Sequence record: NC_073060.1
Length of the DNA: 47,082 nucleotides
Origin: Escherichia phage vB_EcoS_WF5505
Reading direction: 5' to 3' (one strand)
In this document: piece after piece, positions 584 through 47,082 of the stretch
Layout of the letters: each line of letters starts with the position of its first letter
Position numbering within the stretch: the first letter of the stretch is position 1
Translations under genes and position numbers: made by a program
The notes under the pieces: generated by a model
Databases searched by the model: none
What the model saw: only the letters and a program-made list of their open reading frames with translations
Told to the model about the DNA's origin: nothing

Positions 584-592
584 GAGGCCAAA

Positions 593-862
593 ATGACCCG
601 TAGACGCGCAAAACAGCTTTCGTGGCATATCCCCCTGCATTGCATACGAATATGGGCTAAGAATGCGAATGAGGGCGATTCAGTGTTCTGGTGCTATCGC
701 GACGACGTTAAGCCGTTGACGCAGACTCGCTACTTGCACCAGTTCGCAGCACAACACGATTTCAGGGTGCGGACTTCCTTGCAACCAATGGGGATCCGTA
801 TTACATTACGCCGGAAGCCCGCCGTTGAGCGGGTAGGCAAACACTGGAGACTGAGCAAATGA
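593..862 (+). CDS. Hypothetical early protein (89 aa)
   Basis: Track ORF; stop overlaps start of next gene (ATGA coupling). Confidence 0.55.
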   Translation: MTRRRAKQLSWHIPLHCIRIWAKNANEGDSVFWCYRDDVKPLTQTRYLHQFAAQHDFRVRTSLQPMGIRITLRRKPAVERVGKHWRLSK

Positions 863-1203
863 TTCGAGTAACCGCACGCCACGAACAATCGGGGGCCACT
901 TACGATGTAATCGACGTTCGCGGCGCGTTCGTCATCTTCGGACGGGGTGACGACCGGCTGGCGCTGCCGATCGGTATGCTGAGCACATACGACTATTTCA
1001 AGCATAACGTCCGGTGTGGCGATGTGCTGCGCGATAAGCGCACCGGTGAGCTATGGACGGTGGCGAGTATTTGGGTGAAAGATAAACGGCAGCACACGTT
1101 ATTGCTCGCCCGCCCGGATTGCAAACAGCAAACTATTAACACTATTGGCCTGGTGGACTACACCCGCGTAGGCCGTAACGCTACCTGGAGACTGAGAAAA
1201 TGA
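859..1203 (+). CDS. Hypothetical protein, paralogue A (114 aa)
   Basis: Track ORF; shares GDVLRD-R-G-LW-V and GL--Y-RVGR motifs with the next gene. Confidence 0.6.
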   Translation: MIRVTARHEQSGATYDVIDVRGAFVIFGRGDDRLALPIGMLSTYDYFKHNVRCGDVLRDKRTGELWTVASIWVKDKRQHTLLLARPDCKQQTINTIGLVDYTRVGRNATWRLRK

Positions 1204-1832
1204 AATTACTATTCCGCCGTAACTCAGATGGCTATATCCTGAAGCCGATCCAGACCCTATCGAACTGGGTACGCCTCCACCACGTTGCGAGTGATAAAGT
1301 CTGGTGGGCGACTAAGGCAAAGCTGCCGGAGTACTACGAAATCCTCACACACGATATCGAGCGCGGCGATGTGCTGCGGGATATTCGCGACGGGCAATTG
1401 TGGGTCGTGGAATACGTGGGTCGGCACGGCCTGCGTATGACGTCCCGCAAGGATGGCGTAGCGGGCAACATGGTCAAGGGCATGACTTACTTCGGGCTAC
1501 TCCACTACGAACGAGTGGGCCGCAAGTACAGCCTGCGTGCGCGCCAGCCTCATGAGCGAGCGAACGCCATAGCGGACGTCGTTAACCGCGTAGCGCGGGA
1601 GGTGGAGCAGAAGACACGCGTTGAGTTCTGCAAGTCCCAGCCAGCCTATGCAACCTACGACGCGAGCAAAGCGCAGGAATTGATCCGCAGTGCCACGCAT
1701 GAAATCATCAATCACGTTGATGCCATGACGAACGCCAAGCGCCAGGCCAGCGAATACGGCGTAGGATTCATCCGTGTCGAACAAGACGGCAACATGACCG
1801 CCATCGACCCGCGCACGGTAATACTGAAATGA
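1200..1832 (+). CDS. Hypothetical protein, paralogue B (210 aa)
   Basis: Track ORF; N-terminal half is paralogous to 859-1203, translationally coupled (ATGA). Confidence 0.6.
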   Translation: MKLLFRRNSDGYILKPIQTLSNWVRLHHVASDKVWWATKAKLPEYYEILTHDIERGDVLRDIRDGQLWVVEYVGRHGLRMTSRKDGVAGNMVKGMTYFGLLHYERVGRKYSLRARQPHERANAIADVVNRVAREVEQKTRVEFCKSQPAYATYDASKAQELIRSATHEIINHVDAMTNAKRQASEYGVGFIRVEQDGNMTAIDPRTVILK

Positions 1833-1953
1833 GCGCAACTATCCGTGATATGCTTATGCATAACCGCTTTGAGATAGGCGGGAGAGTGTTCTGCAATTAC
1901 TTCGTGGCGCGTGCTTGGGCGCGCCATATCGGAAAACCAGTAGGGGCAATACG

Positions 1954-2241
1954 ATGCTACACGATTTGATATTTTGGTTTGGTTTGGGGTGTGCGTCACT
2001 CTTTGCTATAGTGCTGGCGCTGTTGATTTGGATCTTTCTGGTATGGCCCGCGGTGGAAGCCGCCAGCATTACCCGGATGACGTTCCAGATATACAAGCGC
2101 CGAGGCATAACGGAACACCCGACCAGGTTGCGCATGTGGTGGCTATGGTATCTGGATATGCTTGGAGGCCGAAGGTTTGAGGCCGTCCGATCATCCGGGT
2201 GGGAATGGAAAGGCGTCGGCAAGTGGTCCATTTTCGATTAA
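1954..2241 (+). CDS. Small membrane protein (about 95 aa)
   Basis: ATG with AGGGG RBS, in frame with track ORF 1915-2241; hydrophobic helix FWFGLGCASLFAIVLALLIWIFLVW. Confidence 0.5.
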   Translation: MLHDLIFWFGLGCASLFAIVLALLIWIFLVWPAVEAASITRMTFQIYKRRGITEHPTRLRMWWLWYLDMLGGRRFEAVRSSGWEWKGVGKWSIFD

Positions 2242-3523: not shown

Positions 3524-3563
3524 CTTGACTTGCAACCAACATAGAGGCCATACTGCAACCAAT
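3524..3563 (+). promoter_or_regulatory. Promoter-like region with two TGCAACCAA(T/C) motif copies
   Basis: TTGACT then TGCAACCAAC (3531-3540) and TGCAACCAAT (3554-3563) upstream of small ORFs. Confidence 0.4.
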
Positions 3564-5244: not shown

Positions 5245-5270
5245 AGCCCGCCGATTTGGTGGGCTTTTTT
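5245..5270 (+). terminator. Rho-independent terminator
   Basis: AGCCCGCC...GGTGGGCT hairpin followed by TTTTTT. Confidence 0.55.
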
Positions 5271-5354
5271 GTGCCTGTTATAATCCCCCTTAGATGGCTG
5301 GGCCGTCTCCTATGTTGCCGATGGTCGGCGCATATGCATAAAAGGGCTTATATC

Positions 5355-5906
5355 ATGGCAGAAATCAAAGTTAAGGGCCGTCGTGCCAAACTGGACGGTC
5401 GAGTAGCAGTTACCCCGCGCCGTAAACCAGGCGAGCAAACAGAACACACCAATCTTGGACCCGAGATCGAATACGGCAAGCGTCGTAAAGGCGGCAAATG
5501 CGGACGCCCGACTGACTACCGCACCGTGTATTGTGACCAGCTTCGCCGCTATTTTGCTGATGCCGTAGCCTGGCAGATCAACTACTCCGACAAGGGTGCT
5601 GCGCAAGTCATCCCTCACAACAAGATGCCGACTCTCGGTCGCTTTGCCGCGGATATTGGCGTTGGCATCGCTTGCCTGTACCGCTGGGCGCGTGCACATG
5701 AGGAGTTCGCCGAAGCAATGGCGGACGCTATGGAGTTGCAGAAAACTTTCCTGATGGAGGCAGGCGGCGTGACCATCGCGGCGGGCTTCGCAACGTTCCT
5801 GCTTAAAGCAAACCACGGCATCCGTGACGATGCGCCGCTGGATGACGACGAAGATGATAACGGCGACGTCGTTGTCGAACCTACCGGCAAAGGCCAGGGC
5901 GAATAA
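5355..5906 (+). CDS. Putative terminase small subunit
   Basis: Immediately upstream of and coupled to the large terminase; acidic C-terminus; ATG with AAGGG RBS in frame with track ORF 5256-5906. Confidence 0.5.
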   Translation: MAEIKVKGRRAKLDGRVAVTPRRKPGEQTEHTNLGPEIEYGKRRKGGKCGRPTDYRTVYCDQLRRYFADAVAWQINYSDKGAAQVIPHNKMPTLGRFAADIGVGIACLYRWARAHEEFAEAMADAMELQKTFLMEAGGVTIAAGFATFLLKANHGIRDDAPLDDDEDDNGDVVVEPTGKGQGE

Positions 5907-7291
5907 TGCGTAACTATGCGGCAGAACACCGCGCACTTGAACGCGCGATCGTAAAGCGCAACCGACCGCCACGCCCTACGCGCGTTGCGCAGGCCGTCCG
6001 CCTGTATCAGCCTGATTGCCTTCCGCACCAGGTGGAACTGCTGCGCGACACGAAGACCAAAATCCTCGGCTTGTGTTCCGGCTTCGGTGGCGGCAAGTCA
6101 TGGGTCGCGGCGCGTAAGGTCATCCAGCTTCTCACACTTAACCCTGGCCATGATGGCATCGTTACAGAACCGACTATTCCACTCCTGGTTAAAATCATGT
6201 ACCCGGAGCTTGAGAAGGCTTTCGACGAGGCTGGATTCCGGTGGAAGTTCAACAAGCAAGATAAAATCTATAGCGTGCTGGTGAAAGGCAAATGGACCCG
6301 CGTTATTTGTGAGTCAATGGAGAACTACACCCGCCTGATCGGGGTTAACGCCGCGTGGATTGTTGCCGATGAGTTCGACACCACGAAGCAGGACGTCGCG
6401 ATGGCGGCGTATCACAAATTGCTCGGTCGTCTGCGTGCGGGCCTGGTGCGCCAGTTCGTCATCGTGTCCACGCCTGAAGGCTTCCGGGCGATGTATCAGA
6501 TTTTCGAAGTGGAGAAGGATAGCCAGAAGCGTTTAATCAGGGCGAAGACTACCGATAATCACCACTTACCGGCAGACTTTATCGACACACTGCGAAGCCA
6601 GTACCCAGCAAACCTGATTGACGCGTACCTTAACGGCCTGTTTGTCAACCTCACCTCGGGCGCTGTATACAAGATGTTTAACCGCGAAGAGAACGCCAGC
6701 ACCGAGGAAGTGCAACCGGATGATACGCTGATTATCGGTATGGACTTTAACGTTACGAAAATGGCGGCGGTTGTGTACGTCAGACGGCAGCGCACTACCG
6801 AGAGCAAGGAGTTCCGCGACGAGATCCACGCAGTGGACGAATTTGTGGACCTGTTTGATACCCCGGCTATGGTTGAGGCGATCGAGGAGCGCTACCCCGA
6901 TCATTGTGCTGCCGGTCGGGTCGTCGTTTACCCGGATAGCAGTGGCAAGTCTCGTAAGACTGTTAACGCGTCATCGTCCGATATCGCGCAACTGGAAGAC
7001 GCTGGCTTCGAGGTGGAGTATGACAGCGTCAACCCGCCTGTAAAAGACAGATTGATCGCGATGAATACGATGATGTGCAACTCGAAGGGCGTGCGCCAGT
7101 ATTTTGTCAACATGGATAAATGCCCTACACTAGCGAAATGTCTGGAACAGCAGGTTTATGACCTGAAGAAAGGCGAGCCGGATAAAACCGCCGGTGTGGA
7201 CCACATGAACGATGCCGCAGGCTACCCTGTTGCGCACCTGTTCCCAGTGATTCGTCCAATCGCCGTTGTTCCAACTGTAGACTTCTACTAA
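5906..7291 (+). CDS. Terminase large subunit
   Basis: Walker A-like CSGFGGGKS, Walker B WIVADEFD, C-terminal nuclease-like region; 461 aa; followed by portal. Confidence 0.85.
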   Translation: MRNYAAEHRALERAIVKRNRPPRPTRVAQAVRLYQPDCLPHQVELLRDTKTKILGLCSGFGGGKSWVAARKVIQLLTLNPGHDGIVTEPTIPLLVKIMYPELEKAFDEAGFRWKFNKQDKIYSVLVKGKWTRVICESMENYTRLIGVNAAWIVADEFDTTKQDVAMAAYHKLLGRLRAGLVRQFVIVSTPEGFRAMYQIFEVEKDSQKRLIRAKTTDNHHLPADFIDTLRSQYPANLIDAYLNGLFVNLTSGAVYKMFNREENASTEEVQPDDTLIIGMDFNVTKMAAVVYVRRQRTTESKEFRDEIHAVDEFVDLFDTPAMVEAIEERYPDHCAAGRVVVYPDSSGKSRKTVNASSSDIAQLEDAGFEVEYDSVNPPVKDRLIAMNTMMCNSKGVRQYFVNMDKCPTLAKCLEQQVYDLKKGEPDKTAGVDHMNDAAGYPVAHLFPVIRPIAVVPTVDFY

Positions 7292-10210: not shown

Positions 10211-10343
10211 ACCGCCTTGCACCTTTGAGAATGCCTCGGCAGATCCAGACGAGGATTTGCTTGTTGATGTTAAGAATATGGAGTGTGGTGCTAAGCTAAG
10301 GGCGCAAGTGCTGGAGTTGCAGAAAATAATTCGGGGGCCGTGA
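10113..10343 (+). CDS. o-spanin (Rz1-like outer-membrane lipoprotein)
   Basis: Signal peptide with lipobox LSAC, Pro- and Cys-containing mature part; overlaps i-spanin out of frame. Confidence 0.65.
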   Translation: MLRVLTVLIVVLMLSACGSSKAPSTPLTESVYRPPCTFENASADPDEDLLVDVKNMECGAKLRAQVLELQKIIRGP

Positions 10344-10356
10344 TGGCCCCTTTTTT
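10333..10356. terminator. Bidirectional rho-independent terminator (GGGGCC-N-GGCCCC family)
   Basis: GGGGGCCGTGATGGCCCC followed by TTTTTT; separates plus-strand spanins from minus-strand island. Confidence 0.65.
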
Positions 10357-10361
10357 GTTAA

Positions 10362-10931: not shown

Positions 10932-11696
10932 TTAGCGCGGAATACCGCAGATTTCGTTTAACGTCTTCACATCCAGCGCTACTGCCGTTGACTTCGGCTT
11001 GTCCGGGTATGGAATGAATTGTTCAACTTCAGGCCACGCCGCGATCAGCTTCTTGTCAGTATTGTGCATATCCAGCACGCCGGTAACGGTTAGTTTGAAC
11101 GCGTCATACTTCGCACGCAATTCACGGCGGGCCTTGTCGTTGTGGTCCAGGCGCTTGCAGAAATCATGCTCTGCCGGGTAGTCTACGCGACCGCGTGGTA
11201 GATATATCGGCAGCGCTTTTCCGTCCTCATCCACTTCACATACTGACGCGAGCATAATTTCCTCGTACCCCGGTACAATATCGCTAACGTCAGGCGCGAG
11301 CGTATTCATATATTTTTCTTCCCAGTATCCGCGGTGCTGGCGGTAGCGGTATCCGTCGCCGCTCATATGCAGGGTACGGATGTTACCGCCTGCGTTGATT
11401 TCGAAAGTGGAGCAGTAAACGCGTCCAATGCCTTTCTGACGGTCTTTGTTATAGCTATACGTCGCCTTGTCGGTGTAAACGCTGACGCCGTACATCTGCG
11501 ACTGGTTATCGCGGATTTCTGCGATATATGCGCGTAGCTCGGCGAACGTGTGAATGCCTTCTGGCATACAGTCCAGCGTAATTGCGTACGCCAGGTCGCG
11601 AGAGGCCATCATGATTGATTTGGCTTCAGTCGCGATTTCGTGGTCGCGCAGGATGTTAGCCAGAATCTGGTTTTTAATGTCTTTTGTCAGTCTCAT
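10932..11696 (-). CDS. Hypothetical protein (254 aa), upstream partner of DnaN-like gene
   Basis: Start MRLTKD with GAGGA RBS inside track ORF 10932-11741; no recognised motif. Confidence 0.55.
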   Translation of the reverse strand: MRLTKDIKNQILANILRDHEIATEAKSIMMASRDLAYAITLDCMPEGIHTFAELRAYIAEIRDNQSQMYGVSVYTDKATYSYNKDRQKGIGRVYCSTFEINAGGNIRTLHMSGDGYRYRQHRGYWEEKYMNTLAPDVSDIVPGYEEIMLASVCEVDEDGKALPIYLPRGRVDYPAEHDFCKRLDHNDKARRELRAKYDAFKLTVTGVLDMHNTDKKLIAAWPEVEQFIPYPDKPKSTAVALDVKTLNEICGIPR

Positions 11697-11845
11697 TTGT
11701 GTTTCCTCATTGTTGGTGTGCAACCAATATAGTGCAACCAATACCTGTATTGCAAGCGAATTTTGCGATTATTTTTATCGCTGATAATATTAAAGGCGTG
11801 AAGTCGAGCGGGTGGCCCGCTCTGCCACGATCCCAGGGGGATAGC
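11697..11845. promoter_or_regulatory. Divergent promoter region with two TGCAACCAAT copies
   Basis: TGCAACCAAT at 11719-11728 and 11733-11742; candidate plus-strand sigma70 elements TTGCGA (11763-11768) and TAATAT (11785-11790). Confidence 0.45.
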
Positions 11846-16601: not shown

Positions 16602-16625
16602 GGGGCCAGCACGGCCCCTTTTTTA
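16602..16625 (+). terminator. Rho-independent terminator (GGGGCC-N-GGCCCC family)
   Basis: GGGGCCAGCACGGCCCC followed by TTTTTT. Confidence 0.65.
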
Positions 16626-16640
16626 TTGGAGAATATTACA

Positions 16641-17317: not shown

Positions 17318-17319
17318 TG

Positions 17320-17645
17320 AAGCGGGACAAGCGGGACGTCCCGATCTGTCCCGTTTTGTCCCGCCCCTGTAAAACTGCATATCTACTCACTTTCATTGCA
17401 TAAACTCAAAGCGGGACAAGCGGGACGTCCCGCTTTGTCCCGCCCCTAAATATGCATACCTATTCAGATTTCGTGCATAAAACAAACGGGACAGAAAGCG
17501 GGACAAACAAGGGGCGGGACAAAGCGGGACAGCACCCCGTCCCCGTCAGTGCTGCCGCGGGTTTCAGCCGATCGGGACAGGCGGGACAACTACCAGTCTT
17601 TCAGACTAGACGGGGGTCAATGGCCCCCCTCGTCTTAGACTGAAT
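17320..17645. repeat. Non-coding iteron/palindrome element A
   Basis: Two tandem units with palindrome GCGGGACAAGCGGGACG/TCCCG.T.TGTCCCGC, then direct GCGGGACA repeats and a GC-rich hairpin; homologous to 44770-44945. Confidence 0.8.
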
Positions 17646-17710
17646 AAGGTTTGTTTGAAATTCGCTGATACAATGTCAATCGGCAACTGCATAAAAAAGG
17701 GGACTGCATA

Positions 17711-26565: not shown

Positions 26566-26570
26566 ATGAG

Positions 26571-26595
26571 AAGGGGCCATCCGGCCCCTTTTTTA
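26571..26595. terminator. Bidirectional rho-independent terminator (GGGGCC-N-GGCCCC family)
   Basis: AGGGGCCATCCGGCCCCT flanked by A-run and T-run; between J (+) and minus-strand gene. Confidence 0.7.
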
Positions 26596-27863: not shown

Positions 27864-29390
27864 ATGGCAGCGGGTACTATCTTATTAACCAATAACAGCC
27901 GGTCGGTAACGGGGACCGGTACGACGTTTTCGGCGTTCAAAGCCGGTGATTTCCTTTCTGTCGTAGTGGGGCAAGTCCCCTACACTATCGCGATTGAATC
28001 TATCGAAAGCAACACCGGGCTTACTTTGGTGCTGCCGTTTGACGGCCCAACGGCATCCGGCCTCGCATGGGATGGCGTTGCGCGCGATACCATGTCGCTG
28101 GCAACGATGGGCGTAACAGTCCAGGCACAGAAAGCACTGCGTATGCTTATTGCGGACGAGAACAACTGGCGTGCAATCTTCGGCGACGCTGAAGAAATCA
28201 CAGTTACGTTACCGAACGGCACAGTGATGCAGGGTATGTCGTGGGGCTACCTGTCGCAGCTAATGAAGCAGATCGACCCGGTGGAAATGCTCAACCTGCA
28301 ACAACAAGCCGCCGCATCTGAGGTCGCAGCGAAAGGATACCGCGACGAGGCCGAAGGCTTCAAGAACGATACTAATACCATCAAGACGCAAACCAACCAG
28401 ATTAAGACTGATACGCAGGCGATCCACGACGCCACCAATACGATCAAGACGCAAACCGACCAGATTAAGACCGATACGCAGGCCATCAAGGACCAGACCA
28501 ACCAGATTAAGACTGACACTGGCGTTATTCGAGATCAGGCCAACACGGCGAAGACTGACGCACAAGCGGCCCGAGATGCAGCGCAGGGATACCGCGACGA
28601 AGCCGAAGGCTTCAAAAACTCAATCGACCCCACTAAGTTCATGCAGAAGTCGCAGAACCTGGCGGACGTTGCCGACAAGTACACCGCGCGCAACATTCTG
28701 GGGGTGGGCGATGACAGTAACGTTAAACACGCAACATTACGCCTGAACGGTGGCGAATCATTAACATTCAATGAAGTGGAGGCTAACGGCTTAATTCTAT
28801 CAAACGCCTCGATGGGAATCGACAATTGGGTAGGCTTCACCATGCATGAATGGTACGCCGACTGGACACGCGCAGGAATTGTGCGTGCGGGTGACACCCA
28901 CGTGTCAGACTACCGCATCCACGTGTGGAAGAATGGGGCTACTGAGGCGCTATTCCGCTTCCTGCCGGACGGGCGTCTGATTCAGGGTAACAGCGGCAAC
29001 CCATCGTCGGCGGAGTTTCAGAAAGCACCGCTATCAGACCGGGACGTGAAGAAAGAAATCCAATACACGGACGGCGCGGAAAGTTACAACCGAGTACGGC
29101 AATGGCTACCAGCAATGTTTAAGTATAAGGAGTCGGACGTACAGCGTTACGGCCTTATCGCGCAGGACCTGGCCATGATTGACCCGGAATATGTGCACTT
29201 GCTGCCAGGACACGGAATCTACGAGGACGTTGTTGTTGGCGTGGACGAGGAAGGGAACGAGATTATCGAGCAAAAGGAGATCGGATACACCGACGATGTG
29301 CTGTCGCTTGACAGTAACGTGCTGTTGATGGATCTATGCGCCGCCTTCGTTCACCTGTTGCAGAAAGTAGAAAAGCTGGAAGGTAAGTAA
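27864..29390 (+). CDS. Tail fibre protein with C-terminal intramolecular chaperone domain
   Basis: N-terminal MAAGTILLTNNSRSVTG; 21-aa tandem repeats; C-terminal LSDRDVKK and GLIAQDL resemble S74 autoproteolytic chaperone domains. Confidence 0.75.
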   Translation: MAAGTILLTNNSRSVTGTGTTFSAFKAGDFLSVVVGQVPYTIAIESIESNTGLTLVLPFDGPTASGLAWDGVARDTMSLATMGVTVQAQKALRMLIADENNWRAIFGDAEEITVTLPNGTVMQGMSWGYLSQLMKQIDPVEMLNLQQQAAASEVAAKGYRDEAEGFKNDTNTIKTQTNQIKTDTQAIHDATNTIKTQTDQIKTDTQAIKDQTNQIKTDTGVIRDQANTAKTDAQAARDAAQGYRDEAEGFKNSIDPTKFMQKSQNLADVADKYTARNILGVGDDSNVKHATLRLNGGESLTFNEVEANGLILSNASMGIDNWVGFTMHEWYADWTRAGIVRAGDTHVSDYRIHVWKNGATEALFRFLPDGRLIQGNSGNPSSAEFQKAPLSDRDVKKEIQYTDGAESYNRVRQWLPAMFKYKESDVQRYGLIAQDLAMIDPEYVHLLPGHGIYEDVVVGVDEEGNEIIEQKEIGYTDDVLSLDSNVLLMDLCAAFVHLLQKVEKLEGK

Positions 29391-29393
29391 TGA

Positions 29394-29418
29394 GAAGGGG
29401 CCATACGGCCCCTTTTTT
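29394..29418. terminator. Bidirectional rho-independent terminator (GGGGCC-N-GGCCCC family)
   Basis: AAGGGGCCATACGGCCCCTT followed by TTTTTT; between tail fibre (+) and minus-strand module. Confidence 0.7.
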
Positions 29419-29992
29419 AGTTTGAGTTTTCCCAGTCCATTTTGCGCCGTACTAACGGGCTTTCGTAATATTCCTTGCCCTCCACTTCCACCAGAGGCCA
29501 GTCGTTGACAATCACGTATGGTTCCGCAATATCCTCAATCACGCCGTGTGCGCTATGTTGCCCGAACGATACGCCCACCAGGATAACACCGGCAACCCGA
29601 CGGGTGAGATACTCGCGAGCGCAACGCGCCTCTACCAGTCCGCGACGGATGCCGCTGGTGGCTTTGACCTCGTAGGTCCAGACGGCATCAATCATGTGCT
29701 CACGGAAGTCGGGGCCGGACTTAACCTTGCGTTTACCGACCATGATAATATCGCCGCGGTCGATAGTATTGGCGCTAAACAGGCCGGTACGCATAAGCAA
29801 GCCTTGCGGGATACAACTACGCCCGCCTGCCTGCCCTTCAAGGTACATGCCAGCAAACATCTCGCCCAGCACACCGACAAGTCGGCTTTGCTTGCACGCG
29901 TCAGACTTTAATCGCCACTGGTCAAACTCGACGCTCGCCAACATTGCCGCTATGTGGAATTGTTTACCGGTTATTTCGTATTCGCCGTACAT
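29417..29992 (-). CDS. Hypothetical protein (191 aa), possible PD-(D/E)XK-like nuclease
   Basis: Track ORF; candidate motif GDIIMV...(about 28 aa)...YEVK; assignment weak. Confidence 0.4.
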   Translation of the reverse strand: MYGEYEITGKQFHIAAMLASVEFDQWRLKSDACKQSRLVGVLGEMFAGMYLEGQAGGRSCIPQGLLMRTGLFSANTIDRGDIIMVGKRKVKSGPDFREHMIDAVWTYEVKATSGIRRGLVEARCAREYLTRRVAGVILVGVSFGQHSAHGVIEDIAEPYVIVNDWPLVEVEGKEYYESPLVRRKMDWENSN

Positions 29993-30680: not shown

Positions 30681-30702
30681 TGCAACCAACCTATTGGTTG
30701 CA
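30681..30702. promoter_or_regulatory. Perfect 22-bp palindrome TGCAACCAA-CCTA-TTGGTTGCA (operator-like)
   Basis: Read directly; lies about 53 bp upstream of the 30628 minus-strand start and spans the stop of the HAD gene. Confidence 0.6.
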
Positions 30703-32354: not shown

Positions 32355-32381
32355 TGCAACCAATCTCGCAATGCAACCAAT
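32355..32381. promoter_or_regulatory. Two direct TGCAACCAAT copies, 17 bp apart
   Basis: 32355-32364 and 32372-32381, intergenic, upstream of minus-strand gene starting at 32299. Confidence 0.5.
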
Positions 32382-38285: not shown

Positions 38286-39074
38286 TTAGCGGCGGCGACG
38301 TTTACGTGGTGCTTCGTCTTCGTCGTCTTCGCCCTCATCTTCGTCATCGCGGGACTTACGACGCTTGCGAGGTTTCTCATCTTCCTCGTCTTCGTCATCG
38401 TCGTCGCGGCGCTTGTACTTCTTGGACTTGCGCGGCTTATCATCTTCGTCATCGTCATCGCGACGTTTGGACTTCTTAGCCTTGCGCGGTGCTTCATCTT
38501 CGTCATCGTCGCCCAGGTCGTCATCGGAACAAGAAGACCCGCCGCCACCGAAGGAATCACCATCATCACGGAAGCGAAGACCCATCAAACCGGCACCGAG
38601 TCCTTTACCGTTGGTGTTGTTCCACGCCCAAATATCCAGGGACACGTTGCAATAACAACCGGAATAGATTTCCTGGCCTTCGATCTCGTCGCCGTCGATG
38701 GTCAGACCCTGTTCGGTCTGCTTCTCGCCCAGTGACGTTTGGATGTTAGGCTGTTTGAACGATTTGGCGTTGATGTACAGCATGCCTTCAAACTCTTCGG
38801 TTACTTCGTCGCGCTCATCACCGTCGCGAACTGCGCATTCCTTAGAATCCTGGGCGTAGTGGCGGTCCATCCACTTATCGGCGTTCTTCTCGGATTTCAG
38901 CTTGTCGGTGAGCACTGCGCGCGCTGCCGCTTCCACTTTGTCCACCTGCGGATCTTCTTTATCAAGAAGAATCACGGCACGGTATGCCGGTTTTTGTCCA
39001 TCCTGTTTAGGGGTATCACGTTCCCAAATTTTCAGGAAGCATACGCGCACGTTTTTCAGGTTGACTTTAGCCAT
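38286..39074 (-). CDS. Putative ssDNA-binding protein (DUF2815-like) with charged repeat tail
   Basis: N-terminus MAKVNLKNVRVCF; C-terminal about 80 aa of alternating (D/E)n and PRK-KK-KRR blocks; adjacent to polymerase and nuclease. Confidence 0.5.
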   Translation of the reverse strand: MAKVNLKNVRVCFLKIWERDTPKQDGQKPAYRAVILLDKEDPQVDKVEAAARAVLTDKLKSEKNADKWMDRHYAQDSKECAVRDGDERDEVTEEFEGMLYINAKSFKQPNIQTSLGEKQTEQGLTIDGDEIEGQEIYSGCYCNVSLDIWAWNNTNGKGLGAGLMGLRFRDDGDSFGGGGSSCSDDDLGDDDEDEAPRKAKKSKRRDDDDEDDKPRKSKKYKRRDDDDEDEEDEKPRKRRKSRDDEDEGEDDEDEAPRKRRRR

Positions 39075-39163
39075 TTTTCATTTCCTCATTTCGCATGTAT
39101 CGGGGTTATTGTGAGCCACCCCGTTCGGCTTGGTTGCTAATTTACTTGGTTGCGCCTAAGCGG

Positions 39164-39406: not shown

Positions 39407-40799
39407 TGCTTAAGTCCTCGTCAGTAGCTTCAGACCACGCGGGGCGCGGGTCATCGATTGGTGCCAACACCGGTTTAGCCGGTGCGCGCGTGATTTTATC
39501 ACACAATTTCGCCCACACTTTCGGTTTCTCGTCCTTCAATACCTTCTCGGCATCGGTAGGACTGAGTAATGTTTCTTTATACATTACGTCACGCTTGATC
39601 CGGGCCTTCGTGAAGACTTCAATCACTTCGCTCTCATCCGCCCACTTGCGAATCCCTTCCTTACCGGCAACCATCTTGAGGCCCAGCGATTCACCATCGC
39701 CCGCCATTACGGCCTTGAATACCGCGGACTCGATAGCCTTGATGTGCTGGCGCATTGCGTCAAGACCTTCATATGCCTTGCGCAGTTCCGCCGCGCTCAT
39801 AGCGCCTGGTGCTTCTTCTTCTTTCTTGCCACGCTTCGCACGTCGTGCCGCTTTCCGGGCTTCGCGATCGGTAGCCTTCGGTGCTTCGTCCGCCAGGTCG
39901 TCGTCTGTTGCCGTTGGTGGGGTCATCGTGTCGATGGCGGCCTTAGCGCGGGCACTACACTGATCCGCAAATCTACACCACTGACAGGCATCAACGCTCG
40001 GTCGGAAGTCGGCACGGGTAAGTCCCTTCTTGCCGCGGGAATACGCGTCCAGTGCGTCAATAGCACGCTTGGATGCAAACTTCGCGAATATCTCCAGCGC
40101 TTCCACGGTAATATCCCACTCCGACGCCCCGCCGCAATACGGCTGGAAGATTACCAGGCGAACGGTTGTAATGTCGTACATGGTTTGCAGCTTGCGCAGC
40201 AGGCCCAGCGCGTACAACATAAGCTGTTTGTTTTCTTTCGCCTCGACCTTATGTCGCCCGGTCTTCAGGTCGCCAACAATAAGCATGTACGTGCCGTCGG
40301 TCTTCTTCATGACCATGACCATATCCGCAGTGCCGAACGTCTTAACCCTGTTGCCGTCTATCTCGAAGCCGGGGTGCAAGATGCGGGTGAGATCGGCGCG
40401 CATTTCAAGCTGGACAAACTCCGCCACTTCAAGGAGCGGTCGCCAGTGGTCGATGTACGCGTCACACTGTTTCACCATATCGTCGTTGACCAGTACGCCG
40501 CCTTTCGGTGCTTTCGGGTGCGCCTTTACCGGCCCCTTACCTTCGTTCTCAACGTAACACCCTTTGTACGTCTTCGCGGATAGCTTCTTCTCTCCGGCAA
40601 TGATGCGGTTTAGCACGACTTCTGATACGGTGTGCATACTCGTACCGTTAATCGCAGCTTGCCCGGATTCGTTCGGGATACCTTTTTCGACTACCAGGGC
40701 GGCGGGGCACCCCATCCATTTTTTAGATCCCGATGGCCCGAGTAATGAGTGTTCGGTATTGCTACCGGATTGCGTTTTGCGCTTTGGTTTAATAGCCAT
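39399..40799 (-). CDS. RecB/Cas4-like PD-(D/E)XK exonuclease (DUF2800-like)
   Basis: 466 aa; C-terminal Cys cluster CQWCRFADQC; family assignment from recalled domain architecture. Confidence 0.55.
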   Translation of the reverse strand: MAIKPKRKTQSGSNTEHSLLGPSGSKKWMGCPAALVVEKGIPNESGQAAINGTSMHTVSEVVLNRIIAGEKKLSAKTYKGCYVENEGKGPVKAHPKAPKGGVLVNDDMVKQCDAYIDHWRPLLEVAEFVQLEMRADLTRILHPGFEIDGNRVKTFGTADMVMVMKKTDGTYMLIVGDLKTGRHKVEAKENKQLMLYALGLLRKLQTMYDITTVRLVIFQPYCGGASEWDITVEALEIFAKFASKRAIDALDAYSRGKKGLTRADFRPSVDACQWCRFADQCSARAKAAIDTMTPPTATDDDLADEAPKATDREARKAARRAKRGKKEEEAPGAMSAAELRKAYEGLDAMRQHIKAIESAVFKAVMAGDGESLGLKMVAGKEGIRKWADESEVIEVFTKARIKRDVMYKETLLSPTDAEKVLKDEKPKVWAKLCDKITRAPAKPVLAPIDDPRPAWSEATDEDLSNE

Positions 40800-41283: not shown

Positions 41284-41805
41284 TTAATCTTCTAATTCGA
41301 AATACGTTTCTACGATTTCTTTTAAATCTTTGTGGAAGTCTTCGACGTCGTCATCTTCCAGCTTGGCAACGGATTTAATTTCGAACGCTTCCAGCAGATC
41401 ATCAAATTCGTCGTTTGCGTCGTCGTCATCACCGCCCGCAATAATAGCGGCATACTGCTTGATTTCGTCGCGCATTTCTTTCAGCGGATCGGCATCTTTC
41501 TTGCCTTTACCTTTCGCCGGTGCTTTCTTAGACTTCGCTGGGGCTTCTTCTTCGTCGTCCGCGTCGTCGTCTTCTTCTACGGCTTCTTTCTTAGCCTTGC
41601 CCTTAGCCGGGGCTTTTTTGGTCTTAGCCGGAGCTTCGTCTTCAGCGTCGTCATCTTCGACCACTTCTTCTTTCGCCTTGCCATTAGCCGGGGCTTTCTT
41701 CGCTTCCTGTTTACCAACGGCAGCGCCAGCAGTTTCATAATGCTTAGCGATTACTTCCAGTGCTACTACGCCGCGTGTGATCAGGTTTACGATTTGCTCA
41801 AACAT
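41284..41805 (-). CDS. Hypothetical acidic protein with tandem charged repeats (173 aa)
   Basis: Two copies of (D/E)n-EAPAK-KKAPAKGK-KK, then acidic C-terminus; first gene of the minus-strand module. Confidence 0.55.
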   Translation of the reverse strand: MFEQIVNLITRGVVALEVIAKHYETAGAAVGKQEAKKAPANGKAKEEVVEDDDAEDEAPAKTKKAPAKGKAKKEAVEEDDDADDEEEAPAKSKKAPAKGKGKKDADPLKEMRDEIKQYAAIIAGGDDDDANDEFDDLLEAFEIKSVAKLEDDDVEDFHKDLKEIVETYFELED

Positions 41806-41906
41806 GGTATATCTCCGATTGGTTAATTTAAGTGTTCGGTGCGGTGTGCCCCGTCAACGAGGTGAATAATAGATTGGTTGCAGGCGGGGTGTCAACAACT
41901 AATTTC

Positions 41907-42412: not shown

Positions 42413-44677
42413 ATGAGCTTAATTAAATTCGCAGTAACAAGACCCGCTAAAAAAGGCGAAAAAGCCAGGGCGGAAAACTTCGAGATGACCACTGATGAAT
42501 TTTTCGAATTTATCAATGATGCAAAAGAAATCTCGTCGGTGCATATCAACAAGACAGAAGATAAAGCCGAGTATGCGCGCCGCAAGCGTAAGGCCGATGG
42601 TATCGTGGCATATACCAATGACGGATTACGCCGCAAGACCAGTGCGGTCGACCGCTCGATCCTGTTCTTCGATATCGACCGTACTGACACCCGCACTTTA
42701 CGCCGCTGCCGTAAGGCGTTCACCGACGCTGGTCTGGAGCATGTATTTCACACCACGACCGGCGACCGTCACCCGTTGAAAGGCGGAACACGTTGCGCCC
42801 GTTTCCTGGTGCTCACTGATAAGCCTGTACCGGCGGAAGACCTGGGCCGCGTCCAGTATGCATTGTTAGACCAACTGGGCCTGTCAGATGTGGACTTCGA
42901 CGATTGTACAAAAGACACAAACCGCCTTATGTACCTGCCTCACCAGCAGTCTGTCATAAAGTGCCATTATGGCAAGCGCGCCCGTGTCCGTCGTCTGCTT
43001 CGCCTGGCTGACAAGCTGGGAGTTGAGAAAGAGGAAGTGCGCCGCGAACTGACCCAGGGCGACGATGGCGTGGCGGACGGGATTCTGGACTGGTGCTTCC
43101 AGGCTGGCTTTGAACCACTGTCATCCGGTCGCGGTTATGAAGTGCCGTGCCCGAATGAGCACCTGCATAGCGGTGAAGGGTCGACGGCTATCATGGTTAA
43201 GGATGGCGAGATCCGTTTCAAGTGTATGCACACCGGCAACGAATGCTGTTCCGAACTGAATAAACACCAGCACCTGGCGTTACGTCTGATCGGTATCCCG
43301 GACCACTTGAACGTCGAACCACACAACATGTCACGCAAGCAAATCGCCGCCATCCTTCCTGGACTGGACGACGAGGAAGTGGAATCGTGCTACGAGCATA
43401 TTGTTGATGCGGTCGGAGACGGCGACGAGTACGGCGAATGCACCGACGCTGACCTGGACAACGAGCCGGTCGCACTGTTCAGTAAGCACGACCCGATTAT
43501 CGAAGGCCTGGTCAACTTCAAATCGACCTGGTATATGGCGGGTGAGTCGAACATTGGTAAGTCGTTCTACGTGCTGGGCCAGATGGGCGCTGTTGCCGCG
43601 GGCATTCCGTTCGGCGGCGCGAAGGTCGTCCAGTCGCATTGCTTCTATTTCGATGCGGAAGGCGGCGAAGCCTCCAACCAGCGTAAAGAAGCATTGCAGA
43701 TCAAATATGAGCACGACCTCGACAAGCTGCACATTATCGACCTGCAATCACGCGGCTGGGATATTACCAGCAAGTCAGGCTTGCGCGAGGTTATCAGCTT
43801 TATCAACCGCACCGCTAACGGGGAGCCGGTTGGCCTGGTGGCCTTCGACTCACTCAACCAGACTGTAGCGCTGCGGTCCGCTGATGCCAAACCGTTCGAC
43901 GAGAACAACGCAAGCGATATGGGCGAAGTGGTCAAGGCGCTGAAGTCCATTGCGGAAAATACAGGTGGCAGTGCGGGCGTCATCCATCACCCGGCTAAGG
44001 GTGCAAACGGCAGCAGGTCACCACGCGGGTCCGGCGCGCTTCATGGTGCTGTAGATTCTGCGTTCTTCCTGGAACAGCCGGACGATAATCAGCCAGGCCA
44101 GCTTAACCTGTATCACGAAAAGTCACGTAACGGCATCAAGCAAGCGCCGCGTGGCTTCGTCCTGCTCAAGTGCAAAGTTAAGGTGGATCTCCGTAAGTCT
44201 GATGCGTTCGAAGCCCACCAGTCCACCAGCACCGGGCCAGACTTCGGCGATGTGGTTGCCGGTTGGGACGTCAAGCCAATTGCATCCACGCCACGCGACG
44301 AGACTCTCTACCTCGTACCGGTCGCCCTGGCACCGTTCGCTATCGAACAGGCTAAGGCAGCAGGCAAGGCAGCAGTTAAGGAAGAGAACACCGCCGGACC
44401 GCGCAACGAGAAAGAGAAGGTGCTTTATGCGGCACTGGAAAAACTGATGGAAGATAACCCGGACCATACTGGATTCAGTAAATCGGCAATTGTCCGCCAG
44501 GCTGGACTTGCGAAAGGTGGCACATCGACGAAGGCAATCGACGATATGGTAGAGCGCGGAGTGCTCGGATTTTATACAGACCCACACACCGGGGCCATCT
44601 ATGGGTCGTCGAATTTAGTCATCAAATCGGATATACCCATCACGCTTTCAGCGACCGATGACGACCTGAAAGATTAA
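42413..44677 (+). CDS. DNA primase / replicative helicase
   Basis: 754 aa; Cys/His cluster CPNEHLHSGEG...KCMHTGNECC; C-terminal Walker A GESNIGKS; coupled to HTH gene. Confidence 0.7.
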   Translation: MSLIKFAVTRPAKKGEKARAENFEMTTDEFFEFINDAKEISSVHINKTEDKAEYARRKRKADGIVAYTNDGLRRKTSAVDRSILFFDIDRTDTRTLRRCRKAFTDAGLEHVFHTTTGDRHPLKGGTRCARFLVLTDKPVPAEDLGRVQYALLDQLGLSDVDFDDCTKDTNRLMYLPHQQSVIKCHYGKRARVRRLLRLADKLGVEKEEVRRELTQGDDGVADGILDWCFQAGFEPLSSGRGYEVPCPNEHLHSGEGSTAIMVKDGEIRFKCMHTGNECCSELNKHQHLALRLIGIPDHLNVEPHNMSRKQIAAILPGLDDEEVESCYEHIVDAVGDGDEYGECTDADLDNEPVALFSKHDPIIEGLVNFKSTWYMAGESNIGKSFYVLGQMGAVAAGIPFGGAKVVQSHCFYFDAEGGEASNQRKEALQIKYEHDLDKLHIIDLQSRGWDITSKSGLREVISFINRTANGEPVGLVAFDSLNQTVALRSADAKPFDENNASDMGEVVKALKSIAENTGGSAGVIHHPAKGANGSRSPRGSGALHGAVDSAFFLEQPDDNQPGQLNLYHEKSRNGIKQAPRGFVLLKCKVKVDLRKSDAFEAHQSTSTGPDFGDVVAGWDVKPIASTPRDETLYLVPVALAPFAIEQAKAAGKAAVKEENTAGPRNEKEKVLYAALEKLMEDNPDHTGFSKSAIVRQAGLAKGGTSTKAIDDMVERGVLGFYTDPHTGAIYGSSNLVIKSDIPITLSATDDDLKD

Positions 44678-44769
44678 ATTTTGCGCGCATTGGTTGCCAT
44701 TTTGAGTGTTTTTAGCTGGCCGCATTGGTTGCCGTGTAGTGTAAATATAGTGAATAGTTATGCAGTTTT

Positions 44770-44945
44770 ATTGCATAAAACAAACGGGACAAAAAGCGGG
44801 ACAGACAGGGGGCGGGACAAAGCGGGACAGCACCCCTGTCCCGCCCCGGATTACGCGGCTTGCAGGGGTGCGGGACAGGCGGGACAAACCCCAGTCTTTC
44901 AGACTAGACGGGGGTCAGTTGGCCCCCCTCGTCTGAGACTGCATA
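44770..44945. repeat. Non-coding iteron element B
   Basis: TGCATAAAACAAACGGGACA..., four or more GCGGGACA repeats, GC hairpin; about 85-90% identical to 17476-17645; after primase-helicase and before right terminal repeat. Confidence 0.8.
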
Positions 44946-45159
44946 AAATCCTGGATTGCATAATGCACGGCAGCATGATGAGAATTGCGGTCGTTGATGA
45001 ACTAGGCAACCAATGCGAGTTGGATAATGGAGAGTGAAAAATGCAGTTTGCAGTTACAGCAGATAGCGATCAACTTTTTCATACGCATGATTAATATTGG
45101 TTGCATTCAGCCTGGCACCCTGCTAGATTGGTTGCACACCAACGAGAGGACCAAACAAA

Positions 45160-45330
45160 ATGAAATTTCCAGTAACCATCAAAGACGGTAAATCAACTAT
45201 CACCTTCACCAGCAACGACCAGGGCACCTATGAAAGCGGGGCGACTTGCATGTCTACCCTGGACGATGTGATGATTCGTGTTAATTCCGGTAAAGCCTCG
45301 ATTGTTGACGACAACACTAAGAAGGACTGA
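45160..45330 (+). CDS. Duplicate of 104-274 (small early protein)
   Basis: Inside right repeat, identical sequence. Confidence 0.5.
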   Translation: MKFPVTIKDGKSTITFTSNDQGTYESGATCMSTLDDVMIRVNSGKASIVDDNTKKD

Positions 45331-45333
45331 ACA

Positions 45334-45639
45334 ATGAGAGCATTAATCTGGAAATACTCACGGGCCATAGCGAAGCTGGACGAAGCGAAAAACACAAACG
45401 GCAACGTAGACTATGCGCGCCAGTTTGCGGCACGGGCACACCAACACATCATGAGTGCGCTCGACGATATGGACGCCAGCATGGATGACCTGGGTCCGCT
45501 GCGTAAGGCTATCCATGAATACGCGCTGGCATTCTCCCGTGAGCGCCTGGCCTATCGCTTCGGTATTGGCGATAAGGCAGTGACAAACGTTGCCCGGATT
45601 AAAGCCCAGCGTGAGCTATTCGCCCAGCTTGCGAAATAA
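45334..45639 (+). CDS. Duplicate of 278-583
   Basis: Identical translation in ORF track. Confidence 0.6.
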   Translation: MRALIWKYSRAIAKLDEAKNTNGNVDYARQFAARAHQHIMSALDDMDASMDDLGPLRKAIHEYALAFSRERLAYRFGIGDKAVTNVARIKAQRELFAQLAK

Positions 45640-45648
45640 GAGGCCAAA

Positions 45649-45918
45649 ATGACCCGTAGACGCGCAAAACAGCTTTCGTGGCATATCCCCCTGCATTGCA
45701 TACGAATATGGGCTAAGAATGCGAATGAGGGCGATTCAGTGTTCTGGTGCTATCGCGACGACGTTAAGCCGTTGACGCAGACTCGCTACTTGCACCAGTT
45801 CGCAGCACAACACGATTTCAGGGTGCGGACTTCCTTGCAACCAATGGGGATCCGTATTACATTACGCCGGAAGCCCGCCGTTGAGCGGGTAGGCAAACAC
45901 TGGAGACTGAGCAAATGA
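45649..45918 (+). CDS. Duplicate of 593-862
   Basis: Identical translation in ORF track. Confidence 0.55.
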   Translation: MTRRRAKQLSWHIPLHCIRIWAKNANEGDSVFWCYRDDVKPLTQTRYLHQFAAQHDFRVRTSLQPMGIRITLRRKPAVERVGKHWRLSK

Positions 45919-46259
45919 TTCGAGTAACCGCACGCCACGAACAATCGGGGGCCACTTACGATGTAATCGACGTTCGCGGCGCGTTCGTCATCTTCGGACG
46001 GGGTGACGACCGGCTGGCGCTGCCGATCGGTATGCTGAGCACATACGACTATTTCAAGCATAACGTCCGGTGTGGCGATGTGCTGCGCGATAAGCGCACC
46101 GGTGAGCTATGGACGGTGGCGAGTATTTGGGTGAAAGATAAACGGCAGCACACGTTATTGCTCGCCCGCCCGGATTGCAAACAGCAAACTATTAACACTA
46201 TTGGCCTGGTGGACTACACCCGCGTAGGCCGTAACGCTACCTGGAGACTGAGAAAATGA
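45915..46259 (+). CDS. Duplicate of 859-1203 (paralogue A)
   Basis: Identical translation in ORF track. Confidence 0.6.
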   Translation: MIRVTARHEQSGATYDVIDVRGAFVIFGRGDDRLALPIGMLSTYDYFKHNVRCGDVLRDKRTGELWTVASIWVKDKRQHTLLLARPDCKQQTINTIGLVDYTRVGRNATWRLRK

Positions 46260-46888
46260 AATTACTATTCCGCCGTAACTCAGATGGCTATATCCTGAAG
46301 CCGATCCAGACCCTATCGAACTGGGTACGCCTCCACCACGTTGCGAGTGATAAAGTCTGGTGGGCGACTAAGGCAAAGCTGCCGGAGTACTACGAAATCC
46401 TCACACACGATATCGAGCGCGGCGATGTGCTGCGGGATATTCGCGACGGGCAATTGTGGGTCGTGGAATACGTGGGTCGGCACGGCCTGCGTATGACGTC
46501 CCGCAAGGATGGCGTAGCGGGCAACATGGTCAAGGGCATGACTTACTTCGGGCTACTCCACTACGAACGAGTGGGCCGCAAGTACAGCCTGCGTGCGCGC
46601 CAGCCTCATGAGCGAGCGAACGCCATAGCGGACGTCGTTAACCGCGTAGCGCGGGAGGTGGAGCAGAAGACACGCGTTGAGTTCTGCAAGTCCCAGCCAG
46701 CCTATGCAACCTACGACGCGAGCAAAGCGCAGGAATTGATCCGCAGTGCCACGCATGAAATCATCAATCACGTTGATGCCATGACGAACGCCAAGCGCCA
46801 GGCCAGCGAATACGGCGTAGGATTCATCCGTGTCGAACAAGACGGCAACATGACCGCCATCGACCCGCGCACGGTAATACTGAAATGA
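46256..46888 (+). CDS. Duplicate of 1200-1832 (paralogue B)
   Basis: Identical translation in ORF track. Confidence 0.6.
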   Translation: MKLLFRRNSDGYILKPIQTLSNWVRLHHVASDKVWWATKAKLPEYYEILTHDIERGDVLRDIRDGQLWVVEYVGRHGLRMTSRKDGVAGNMVKGMTYFGLLHYERVGRKYSLRARQPHERANAIADVVNRVAREVEQKTRVEFCKSQPAYATYDASKAQELIRSATHEIINHVDAMTNAKRQASEYGVGFIRVEQDGNMTAIDPRTVILK

Positions 46889-47009
46889 GCGCAACTATCC
46901 GTGATATGCTTATGCATAACCGCTTTGAGATAGGCGGGAGAGTGTTCTGCAATTACTTCGTGGCGCGTGCTTGGGCGCGCCATATCGGAAAACCAGTAGG
47001 GGCAATACG

Positions 47010-47082
47010 ATGCTACACGATTTGATATTTTGGTTTGGTTTGGGGTGTGCGTCACTCTTTGCTATAGTGCTGGCGCTGTTGA
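47010..47082 (+). CDS. 5' fragment of duplicate of 1954-2241, truncated by window end
   Basis: Same sequence as 1954-2026; the window (and the repeat) ends inside the gene. Confidence 0.4.
   Translation, partial: MLHDLIFWFGLGCASLFAIVLALL

Follow-up and report, generated by a model that had tools for sequence, protein, structure and literature searches.

A candidate iteron origin of replication behind the helicase-primase gene of Escherichia phage vB_EcoS_WF5505 and its second copy in the tail operon

The genome record of Escherichia phage vB_EcoS_WF5505 (NC_073060.1; its whole stretch of 47,082 nucleotides (nt) was analyzed and is called the window below) carries, directly behind the helicase-primase gene, an array of GGGACA boxes followed by a hairpin (element B, 44770-44945), and a second copy of this array, region A, inside the tail operon. 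Based on comparison with related and unrelated viral genomes, we propose that element B is probably an iteron origin of replication bound by the C-terminus of the helicase-primase. An origin at B is favoured because B keeps the helicase-primase-adjacent place that the relatives share, and because the C-terminal domain and the repeats were apparently exchanged together. The genome is that of a Dhillonvirus, an HK578/SO-1-like virulent coliphage with a unit length of 45056 bp: the region around element B found matches in 157 phage records (80-95% identity), nearly all of them Escherichia, Shigella or Sodalis Dhillonviruses, and the helicase-primase protein was 100% identical to its counterpart in Haito_Bas83. 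An iteron origin beside a helicase-primase gene is an expected kind of element, which here would be present in two copies per genome.

Architecture of element B

The helicase-primase gene (42413-44677; this and all other oriented features below lie on the plus strand) encodes 754 amino acids (aa), in which a primase region at the N-terminus is followed by an AAA_25 (RepA/RecA-like) helicase and a variable C-terminal domain. Element B begins 92 nt past its stop codon. A preliminary description of this DNA, made from its letters alone, had placed the element directly after the primase-helicase gene and behind an AT-rich stretch, and both points were borne out: AT content was 74.5% in 44735-44785 versus 35% in 44786-44945.

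Reading from the stop codon, two promoter- or operator-like TTGGTTGC motifs (44690-44697 and 44725-44732) precede the AT-rich left border (44735-44785), a putative unwinding or loading region that contains a -10-like TATAGT (44746-44751), the conserved 13-mer GAATAGTTATGCA (44752-44764) and an inverted TGCATAA (44772-44778). The first iteron set consists of four direct GGGACA boxes which start at 44786, 44798, 44814 and 44824 (spacing 12, 16 and 10; the last ends at 44829), and is followed by a 34-nt paralogue-specific core (44837-44870) that in B opens with an inverted box, TGTCCC (44837-44842). Together with the third box this inverted box forms an 11-nt inverted repeat (GGGGCGGGACA at 44809-44819 and TGTCCCGCCCC at 44837-44847). 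The second set adds two direct boxes at 44872 and 44881 (to 44886), so that element B holds two GGGACA sets (four and two) plus one inverted box, and these seven hexamers lie 108-209 nt past the helicase-primase stop codon. Further downstream are a 50-nt imperfect hairpin, CAGTCTTTCAGACTAGACGGGGG-loop-CCCCCCTCGTCTGAGACTG (44892-44941), with GCATAAAATCC as its immediate 3' sequence, and a right border (44940-44975) with TGCATAA boxes at 44940-44946 and 44957-44963 and a conserved CACGGCAGCA at 44966-44975.

Apparent exchange of the repeats together with the C-terminal domain

The same module was found right after the helicase-primase stop codon in six relatives (protein identity 37-46%), all of them Guernseyvirinae-like: contigs L052, L053 and L057, Salmonella phage vB_STM-ZS, Pantoea phage AH01 (L060) and Serratia phage Otaku, the last with a more diverged form. 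In these relatives the module runs from one or two copies of GAATAGTTATGCA through three to five direct repeats, then inverted ones, a spacer and two more repeats to a 3' part made of a mini-hairpin plus a G-run/C-run hairpin, TTATTCATTATGCA, CACGGCA(G/A)CA and a promoter. In L052, L053, L057, vB_STM-ZS and AH01, GAATAGTTATGCA (or GAATAGTTAGGCA) recurs at the corresponding position, mostly in two copies, and CACGGCA(G/A)CA was kept in these five and in Otaku. The borders of the module are thus conserved at the nucleotide level and the repeat inside them is lineage-specific: GGGACA in Dhillonvirus and in a group of 68% identity, GGACAA in AH01, CCGACA in L053, GGGATA in L052, GGGGATRA in L057, GGGGGAGA in vB_STM-ZS and TTCCGCACA in Otaku. 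The hairpin behaves in a similar way, since five other lineages carry one in the same place and of the same layout with another sequence; these versions folded at z -2.0 to -4.0, in a comparison made by eye and by single folds rather than by a formal covariation test.

The clearest case was the pair AH01 and L053, two phages that are near-identical otherwise. Their helicase-primases were 96.1% identical over alignment columns 1-700 and 47.9% identical over the last ~100 aa, and their repeats are not the same. In the DNA, identity collapsed at the start of the C-terminal domain, stayed low through the repeats and the hairpin except at the GAATAGTTA boxes, and returned to ~99% from CACGGCAACA onward. 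The difference between the two phages (44700-45480 in AH01 versus 4686-5470 in L053) looks like one exchangeable cassette, that is, a natural swap of specificity. The reciprocal pattern was seen within Dhillonvirus, where the N-terminus of the helicase-primase fell to 48-69% identity, the C-terminus stayed at 84-97% and the repeat was GGGACA throughout. To judge from these alignments, the C-terminal domain and the repeats have apparently been exchanged together.

A predicted winged helix at the end of the helicase-primase

The helicase-primase belongs to Pfam AAA_25 (E 3e-19) and to PHROG 3228, "replicative helicase-primase". Searched against PDB, the family profile gave a weak match to the RSF1010 RepA structure 1g8y (E 0.021) and a match to BurrH that is due to chance, while the single sequence gave no match at E 0.01 or better, the P4 alpha domain included. 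Its last ~100 aa are the most variable part of the protein between lineages. As a homologue search with the C-terminal 124 aa alone had given two fragments, the full protein was used instead, and aa 601-754 were modelled with AlphaFold2 from an alignment of 37 sequences. The model predicts a winged helix at about aa 665-740 (nt 44405-44632): the layout is helix-helix-helix-strand-strand, the predicted local distance difference test (pLDDT) was 75-89 at model residues 61-140, and all top PDB matches of a fold search with the C-terminus were MarR or other winged-helix proteins.

Another potential DNA-binding protein is encoded next door: a small upstream gene that adjoins the helicase-primase gene specifies a helix-turn-helix (HTH) protein similar to HTH_23 and sigma70_r4. 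No similarity was detectable between this gene and its positional counterpart in AH01. Therefore the helicase-primase is the only DNA-binding candidate that is shared, and the HTH protein appears to be a poor candidate for a common repeat binder. We propose the C-terminus of the helicase-primase as the iteron binder, and its exchange together with the repeats indirectly supports a role in iteron specificity.

GGGACA arrays beside AAA_25 helicase genes in unrelated contigs

When 2.9 million viral contigs were scanned for pairs of spaced GGGACA boxes, eight loci outside Dhillonvirus had at least nine boxes, seven of them distinct in sequence (L095 equals L108). All eight encode an AAA_25 helicase, as judged by Pfam and by the family profile. 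Seven distinct arrays adjoin or run into the 3' end of the AAA_25 gene, namely those of six of the distinct loci (L089, L127, L117, L099, L095 and L078) and that of L080; the exception is L100, where the array lies 2.1 kb from the helicase gene. Moreover, three smaller GGGACA arrays were situated 12-38 nt from an AAA_25 gene.

The arrays of L089, L095/L108, L078, L099, L117, L127 and L080 hold 10-14 boxes, arranged as direct boxes, a short GC palindrome and inverted boxes. Their contigs are high in GC, and the genes at whose 3' ends they sit code for AAA_25 helicases or primase-helicases. L084 is one of seven loci with eight boxes in which the family profile showed no AAA_25 gene; its boxes lie inside the gene of a replication protein that, by eye, is apparently a different one.

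Boxes, spacing and hairpin in the two copies

The preliminary description had reported a second iteron copy at 17476-17645, 85-90% identical to element B, with conserved flanks and a 54-bp core of differing sequence and equal length, and had suggested a constraint on spacing. The homology is real and lies where it was placed, with identity somewhat lower than given: 145/176 (82%) in a gapped alignment of 44770-44945 with 17476-17645, and 82% without gaps over 177 nt at an offset of 27298 (repeat family D2). The flanks of the two copies were ~93% identical (8-10/10 in windows of 10 nt), as described. The core does diverge at equal length, and it measures 34 nt instead of 54 (44837-44870 versus 17539-17572, about half identical).

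The boxes are strongly concentrated at these two loci. GCGGGACA, the usual form in which GGGACA occurs, was found 16 times in the window versus 2.35 expected, a number that was reached in 0/100 shuffles, and 14 of the 16 fall in 17322-17588 and 44796-44886. As for the hexamer GGGACA itself, 18 of 24 lie in loci A and B; only six lie elsewhere, versus ~19 expected window-wide, and this deficit suggests that the hexamer is avoided outside the two loci.

The spacing was assessed in an alignment of 32 copies taken from the window, Haito_Bas83 and 16 viral contigs. By flank similarity 15 of them were called "A" and 17 "B"; L029, one of the "A" calls, is probably a B copy that belongs to the 68%-identity group. 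The boxes stand 106, 94, 78, 68, (inverted) 53-55, 20 and 11/12 nt before the hairpin, and these distances were fixed within ~1 nt in all 32 copies despite the differing cores of A and B, so the suggested spacing constraint holds. Boxes and hairpin stems were essentially invariant, with every stem pair unchanged in 30-32 of the 32 copies and with variation confined to the loop, and the B-type and A-type cores were each kept within their own paralogue across genomes. When the element was compared by BLAST with complete E. coli genomes and with PLSDB plasmids, no match was found; thus there is no evidence in these two collections of satellites or prophages that borrow the origin.

Every iteron module is also flanked by TTATGCA/TGCATAA boxes (15 in the window versus 6.4 expected; 8/15 at the two loci), located at 44758-44764, 44772-44778, 44940-44946 and 44957-44963 and at 17397, 17474, 17688 and 17705. 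They are kept in relatives regardless of repeat type. DnaA boxes were considered as an identity for them; the resemblance is partial, with matches to TTATNCACA at only 7-8/9 positions and inconsistently.

Coding and RNA alternatives

That the region might encode a translated protein was a possibility raised in the preliminary description, and several lines of evidence bear on it: i) in the commonest open reading frame (ORF) of the B copies, variable columns were distributed over the codon positions as 42/31/30, versus 9/4/32 in the 3' end of the helicase-primase gene used as control; ii) several 1-nt indels separate the copies; iii) frames and lengths of the ORFs over the element are inconsistent between copies or absent; iv) these ORFs matched no Pfam or PHROG family; v) the curated records of SO-1, AH01, vB_STM-ZS and Otaku call no gene over the region. 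Element B is non-coding. A small protein-coding gene here (for example Bas83_0056, or ORFs 44681-45037 and 44760-44936 of the window) is therefore scarcely credible, even though open frames run through most B copies and hypothetical proteins are annotated in several GenBank records.

Such annotations extend over the repeats in many GenBank records, as in Haito_Bas83 (L001; 3082-3384), and similar ORFs of the window are 44681-45037, 44760-44936 and 17452-17643. Because they carry no coding signature, we regard these hypothetical proteins as probably spurious.

The folding of the element raised another alternative, a structured non-coding RNA transcribed from the plus strand with, for instance, a regulatory or anti-defence role. 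Element B folded better than its shuffles (z -4.5 as DNA and -4.7 as RNA), the 50-nt hairpin gave z of about -3, its stems do not vary, and other lineages place hairpins of the same layout and different sequence at the same site. On the other hand, a scan of the whole window against Rfam 15 gave no match at the gathering threshold, region A folded no better than shuffles (z -0.46), and the changes of the hairpin between lineages come from the informal comparison described above. The RNAalifold covariation term was about 0 within the genus, where covariation is uninformative because the stems never vary. The strongest conservation is that of the short direct repeats and their fixed spacing, a pattern characteristic of DNA bound by proteins. 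We therefore consider an RNA role highly improbable.

Transcriptional signals around the two copies

Both copies are followed by promoter-like sequence. Past B, TTGCAT-17 nt-TAGATT (45100-45128, within 45097-45135, overlapped by two TTGGTTGC motifs) lies outside the module, ~125 nt beyond the right border and ahead of a cluster of small ORFs (the first at 45160-45330); it is below the threshold of the consensus scan and was read by eye from the sequence. Past A, an extended -10-like TGATACAAT occupies 17666-17674. In the relatives, good -35/-10 pairs stand 40-110 nt past the module. These observations, together with the TTGGTTGC motifs that flank B and the HTH_23/sigma70_r4-like gene beside the helicase-primase gene, are what a transcriptional control region would predict, in which a phage regulator (the helicase-primase C-terminus as autoregulator, the 109-aa HTH protein or a 380-aa regulator) would use the boxes as operators or enhancers. 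Its targets would be the promoter downstream or transcription that reads through from the early replication operon, and the hairpin would act in RNA stability or attenuation. We judge this explanation unlikely: consensus scans for sigma-70 promoters and intrinsic terminators found none at either locus, and the B hairpin of Dhillonvirus fails as a terminator since no T-run follows it (that is, no U-tract in the transcript). Moreover, conservation of the module does not extend to the small HTH gene, the repeats are exchanged with the C-terminus of the helicase-primase and not with a regulator gene, and the arrays of unrelated contigs abut helicase genes whatever is downstream.

The motif TTGGTTGC is itself widespread, with 23 occurrences versus 1.9 expected in the window, mainly intergenic and often paired 12-35 nt apart (41-48, 72-79, 3532-3562, 11720-11741, 30682-30701, 32356-32380, 39130-39153, 41874-41881, 44690-44732, 45006-45135 and others). 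It overlaps a -35-like TTGCAT/TTGCAA or comes after TATAGT. Related motifs were seen in other lineages (GCAACCAAC, six times, in L056; CAGCCAACA in L057; TGTTGGCTGC in vB_STM-ZS), and TTGGTTGC probably belongs to a family-wide promoter or operator motif.

Region A, the copy in the tail operon

Region A (17319-17710) fills the gap between the genes for the tail assembly chaperone and the tape measure (flanks Phage_TAC_4 and TMP_2). Two palindromic iteron modules (17320-17366 and 17409-17450) lie upstream of a B-like module (17474-17645), whose boxes start at 17488, 17500, 17516, 17526, 17574 and 17583 and whose hairpin occupies 17594-17642. Loci A and B share boxes and spacing and are both present across the genus; the whole layout of region A is conserved in 14 other Dhillonvirus contigs. 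A search for the locus based on the tape-measure gene did not reach L061 and L029 of the 68%-identity group. The palindromic GGGACA modules (GCGGGACAaGCGGGAC|GTCCCGcttTGTCCCGCC), each followed by TGCATA...TGCATAAA, are likewise kept in these 14 contigs.

In the Guernseyvirinae relatives there is no gap between the tail chaperone and tape-measure genes, which is why, judged by this comparison, B is ancestral and A is a duplicate specific to Dhillonvirus. B is also marked as the ancestral, primary copy by its place: only B keeps the position next to the helicase-primase gene that is common to all relatives.

Both loci had been flagged before. The GenBank record of Sodalis phage SO-1 (GQ502199.1) annotates them as repeat_region "region A" (11214-11597, flanked by gp16 and the gene for the tape measure) and "region B" (40178-40657, downstream of the helicase-primase gene), with a note on direct, inverted and palindromic repeats and on sequence similarity between A and B. 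The papers found to cite SO-1 do not discuss regions A and B. The pair of regions is thus already on record; an analysis of boxes, spacing, distribution and binder was not found in the literature searched.

Being duplicated, the element probably causes breaks in assemblies. Contig L066 (IMGVR_UViG_3300045988_009799) starts 96 nt upstream of the tape-measure start codon, inside region A, and its assembly may have been broken at the duplicated element.

Genome ends and packaging

Element B had further been described as lying about 110 bp before the boundary of a terminal repeat, hence beside the physical genome end, and as a possible packaging signal. The distance is correct, as 112 nt separate the end of the element from 45057, where an exact duplicate of window positions 1-2026 begins and continues to the window end (45057-47082). 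These 2026 nt equal 4.5% of the 45056-bp unit genome and could be either headful terminal redundancy or an assembly overlap. A physical end at this boundary is not supported: Dhillonvirus genomes are circular assemblies, and the public records of relatives begin at positions unrelated to 45057. In the well-known pac site of phage P1, hexamer sets around a core are bound by the small terminase, and the hexamers carry Dam (GATC) sites. PhageTerm analyses indicated headful (pac), permuted packaging for Dhillonvirus Opt-212 (PMC9022532) and Dhillonvirus BF9 (PMC10059673), and likewise for the Guernseyvirinae relative AH01 (PMC8567786).

A pac site at element B, with the hexamer sets bound by the small terminase and 45057 as the first pac-proximal cut, would fit several of these facts: the 4+2 layout around a core recalls the P1 site, the duplicated window end begins just downstream, 4.5% is a plausible headful value and the relatives package by a pac-type headful mechanism. 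Yet the element lies 5.4 kb upstream of the terminase genes (5256-7291), its repeats track the C-terminus of the helicase-primase, and arrays in unrelated phages adjoin AAA_25 helicase genes, with no link to terminase genes seen and none searched for. Moreover, two pac sites in the same sense 27 kb apart would be unusual, the relatives' records start elsewhere, the GGGACA boxes carry no GATC, unlike the P1 hexamers, and nothing shows 45057 to be a real end. A packaging role is thus very unlikely. Of the earlier case for B as the primary origin, the part that stands is the non-coding, spacing-constrained iteron element tied to a replication gene; the argument from packaging and the genome end finds no support.

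Cumulative GC skew over the window, with a minimum near 42 kb, was dropped as an indicator of the origin. It merely follows the direction of transcription and so speaks neither for nor against an origin at B.

Proposed initiation mechanism

We infer the following course of binding, melting, priming and origin firing at element B: i) the C-terminal winged helix of the helicase-primase would bind the GGGACA boxes (four direct, one inverted, two direct); ii) several protomers would assemble into one or more helicase rings on the DNA, which would make the protein a self-loading initiator-helicase; iii) the adjacent AT-rich border with its GAATAGTTATGCA repeats would melt; iv) the conserved hairpin would be extruded or exposed as single-stranded DNA and may act as a loading or priming signal; v) the N-terminal primase would start synthesis and the family-A DNA polymerase of the phage would extend it. 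Region A could be a second origin or a cis-acting helper site.

A number of observations weigh against an origin of this kind, and they concern the protein, the distribution of the arrays and the sites themselves. The AlphaFold2 model is of modest quality overall (pLDDT 70.7), and the fold search was weak (best E 3.5e-3, none at or below 0.001). When the C-termini of Dhillonvirus and Guernseyvirinae were compared by hhalign with the other GGGACA-associated helicases, the probability was 10%, and seven loci with eight boxes have no AAA_25 gene by the family profile. A second copy within the tail operon is an odd location for an origin; the promoter-like sequence after each copy makes a transcriptional role possible; and in B the segment between the two box sets is GC-rich, with the AT-rich stretch to the left, at variance with the origins of Staphylococcus aureus pathogenicity islands (SaPI), which are AT-rich there. 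Literature searches for GGGACA together with iterons, and for a mapped Jerseyvirus or Dhillonvirus origin, returned nothing relevant.

More tentatively, and with doubt as to the whole, the two loci and the exchange could be read jointly as a two-site replication system, present in every Dhillonvirus, that works with a portable specificity cassette of DNA-binding domain, iterons and hairpin shared with Guernseyvirinae. Region A may then fire as a second origin or, in the manner of crr, help in cis through an obligatory pairing with B, and it might couple replication to transcription of the late operon. For the fused primase, the hairpin exchanged with the winged helix and the repeats could provide a sequence-specific signal for loading or priming.

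Comparison with known replication systems

The closest published design to element B and its helicase-primase is, by analogy, the Rep/ori system of SaPI. There the C-terminal winged helix of Rep binds 6-12 penta- or hexanucleotide iterons directly downstream of rep, the iterons form two sets in which some repeats are opposed in orientation, specificity differs between lineages, and in SaPI5 a primase is fused to the helicase (PriRep5) (PMC9371898). The phage module resembles this design in its at least six short repeats directly downstream of an initiator-helicase gene, an arrangement also present in the six relatives and in seven unrelated AAA_25 contigs. It differs in that SaPI Rep is an AAA+ protein of the superfamily 3 (SF3)/MCM type and the phage helicase-primase is an AAA_25 (RecA/RepA-like) protein, in that the AT-rich segment lies between the iteron sets in SaPI and left of them in phage B, and in that the phage element has, in addition, a long conserved hairpin and another copy elsewhere in the genome.

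Three further systems share single traits with the phage. The alpha protein of satellite phage P4 is a primase-helicase polypeptide that reads short repeats by its C-terminal domain, and the same repeats occur at ori and at the cis replication region, crr. Loci A and B correspond to this pair in that two genome loci carry the same repeats; however, they lie 27 kb apart versus ~4.5 kb in P4, the repeat sequence differs, and so does the helicase class (AAA_25 versus D5-type SF3); the phage protein had no PDB match at E <= 0.01, the P4 alpha domain included. In Bacillus phage SPP1, a pac-type siphovirus of ~45 kb, oriL and oriR are homologous initiator-binding regions tens of kb apart. As in the window, one site is at the replication genes and the other in the late region, but the SPP1 initiator G38P, which binds the origin as a protein of its own, depends on a loader plus a helicase of the DnaB type, and repeats and proteins are unrelated. 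The IncQ plasmid RSF1010 has an oriV with 20-bp iterons bound by the initiator RepC, the ssiA/ssiB hairpins as primase entry sites, the RepA helicase and the RepB' primase. The phage shares with it the AAA_25 helicase family (with a weak RepA match, E 0.021) and the combination of iterons with conserved hairpins; a priming role of the phage hairpin would be conjecture. The difference is that RepC is a separate protein, whereas the phage combines hexamers with primase, helicase and putative binder in one polypeptide.

Among coliphages and Salmonella phages, Dhillonviruses and Jersey-like Guernseyvirinae rank with those most often isolated for use in therapy and biocontrol, and no published origin was found for either. 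A candidate origin plus a candidate binding domain in the adjacent gene make replication initiation testable in this phage group. The most interesting traits are the lineage-specific repeats on a kept scaffold, the apparent exchange of domain and repeats as a cassette, and the second copy in the tail operon, which was retained universally. One scaffold with at least seven different repeats amounts to a natural specificity series that could be useful for engineering orthogonal phage replicons, and the near-isogenic pair AH01 and L053, which differs only in the C-terminal domain and the repeats, offers a system for studying how a winged helix would read hexamers.

Other repeats and hairpins

Three groups of repeats or repeat-like strings were met apart from the iteron loci. 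Strings similar to GCGGGGATAA in L057 were considered as a mimic of the type I-E repeat of clustered regularly interspaced short palindromic repeats (CRISPR) and rejected, as they lack the Cas6e hairpin and Rfam gave no match to a CRISPR family. Hairpins that resemble terminators and are nearly identical to one another (GGGGCC-loop-GGCCCCTTTTTT; families D7 and D8) occur at 10334-10359, 16602-16627, 26567-26595 and 29391-29422, at the ends of late gene blocks. Families D4-D6 comprise tandem 63-nt repeats at 28366-28533, within ORF 27864-29390 (probably a tail fibre), and repeats at 38314-38493 and 41465-41700 that code for acidic/basic stretches in two minus-strand early ORFs.

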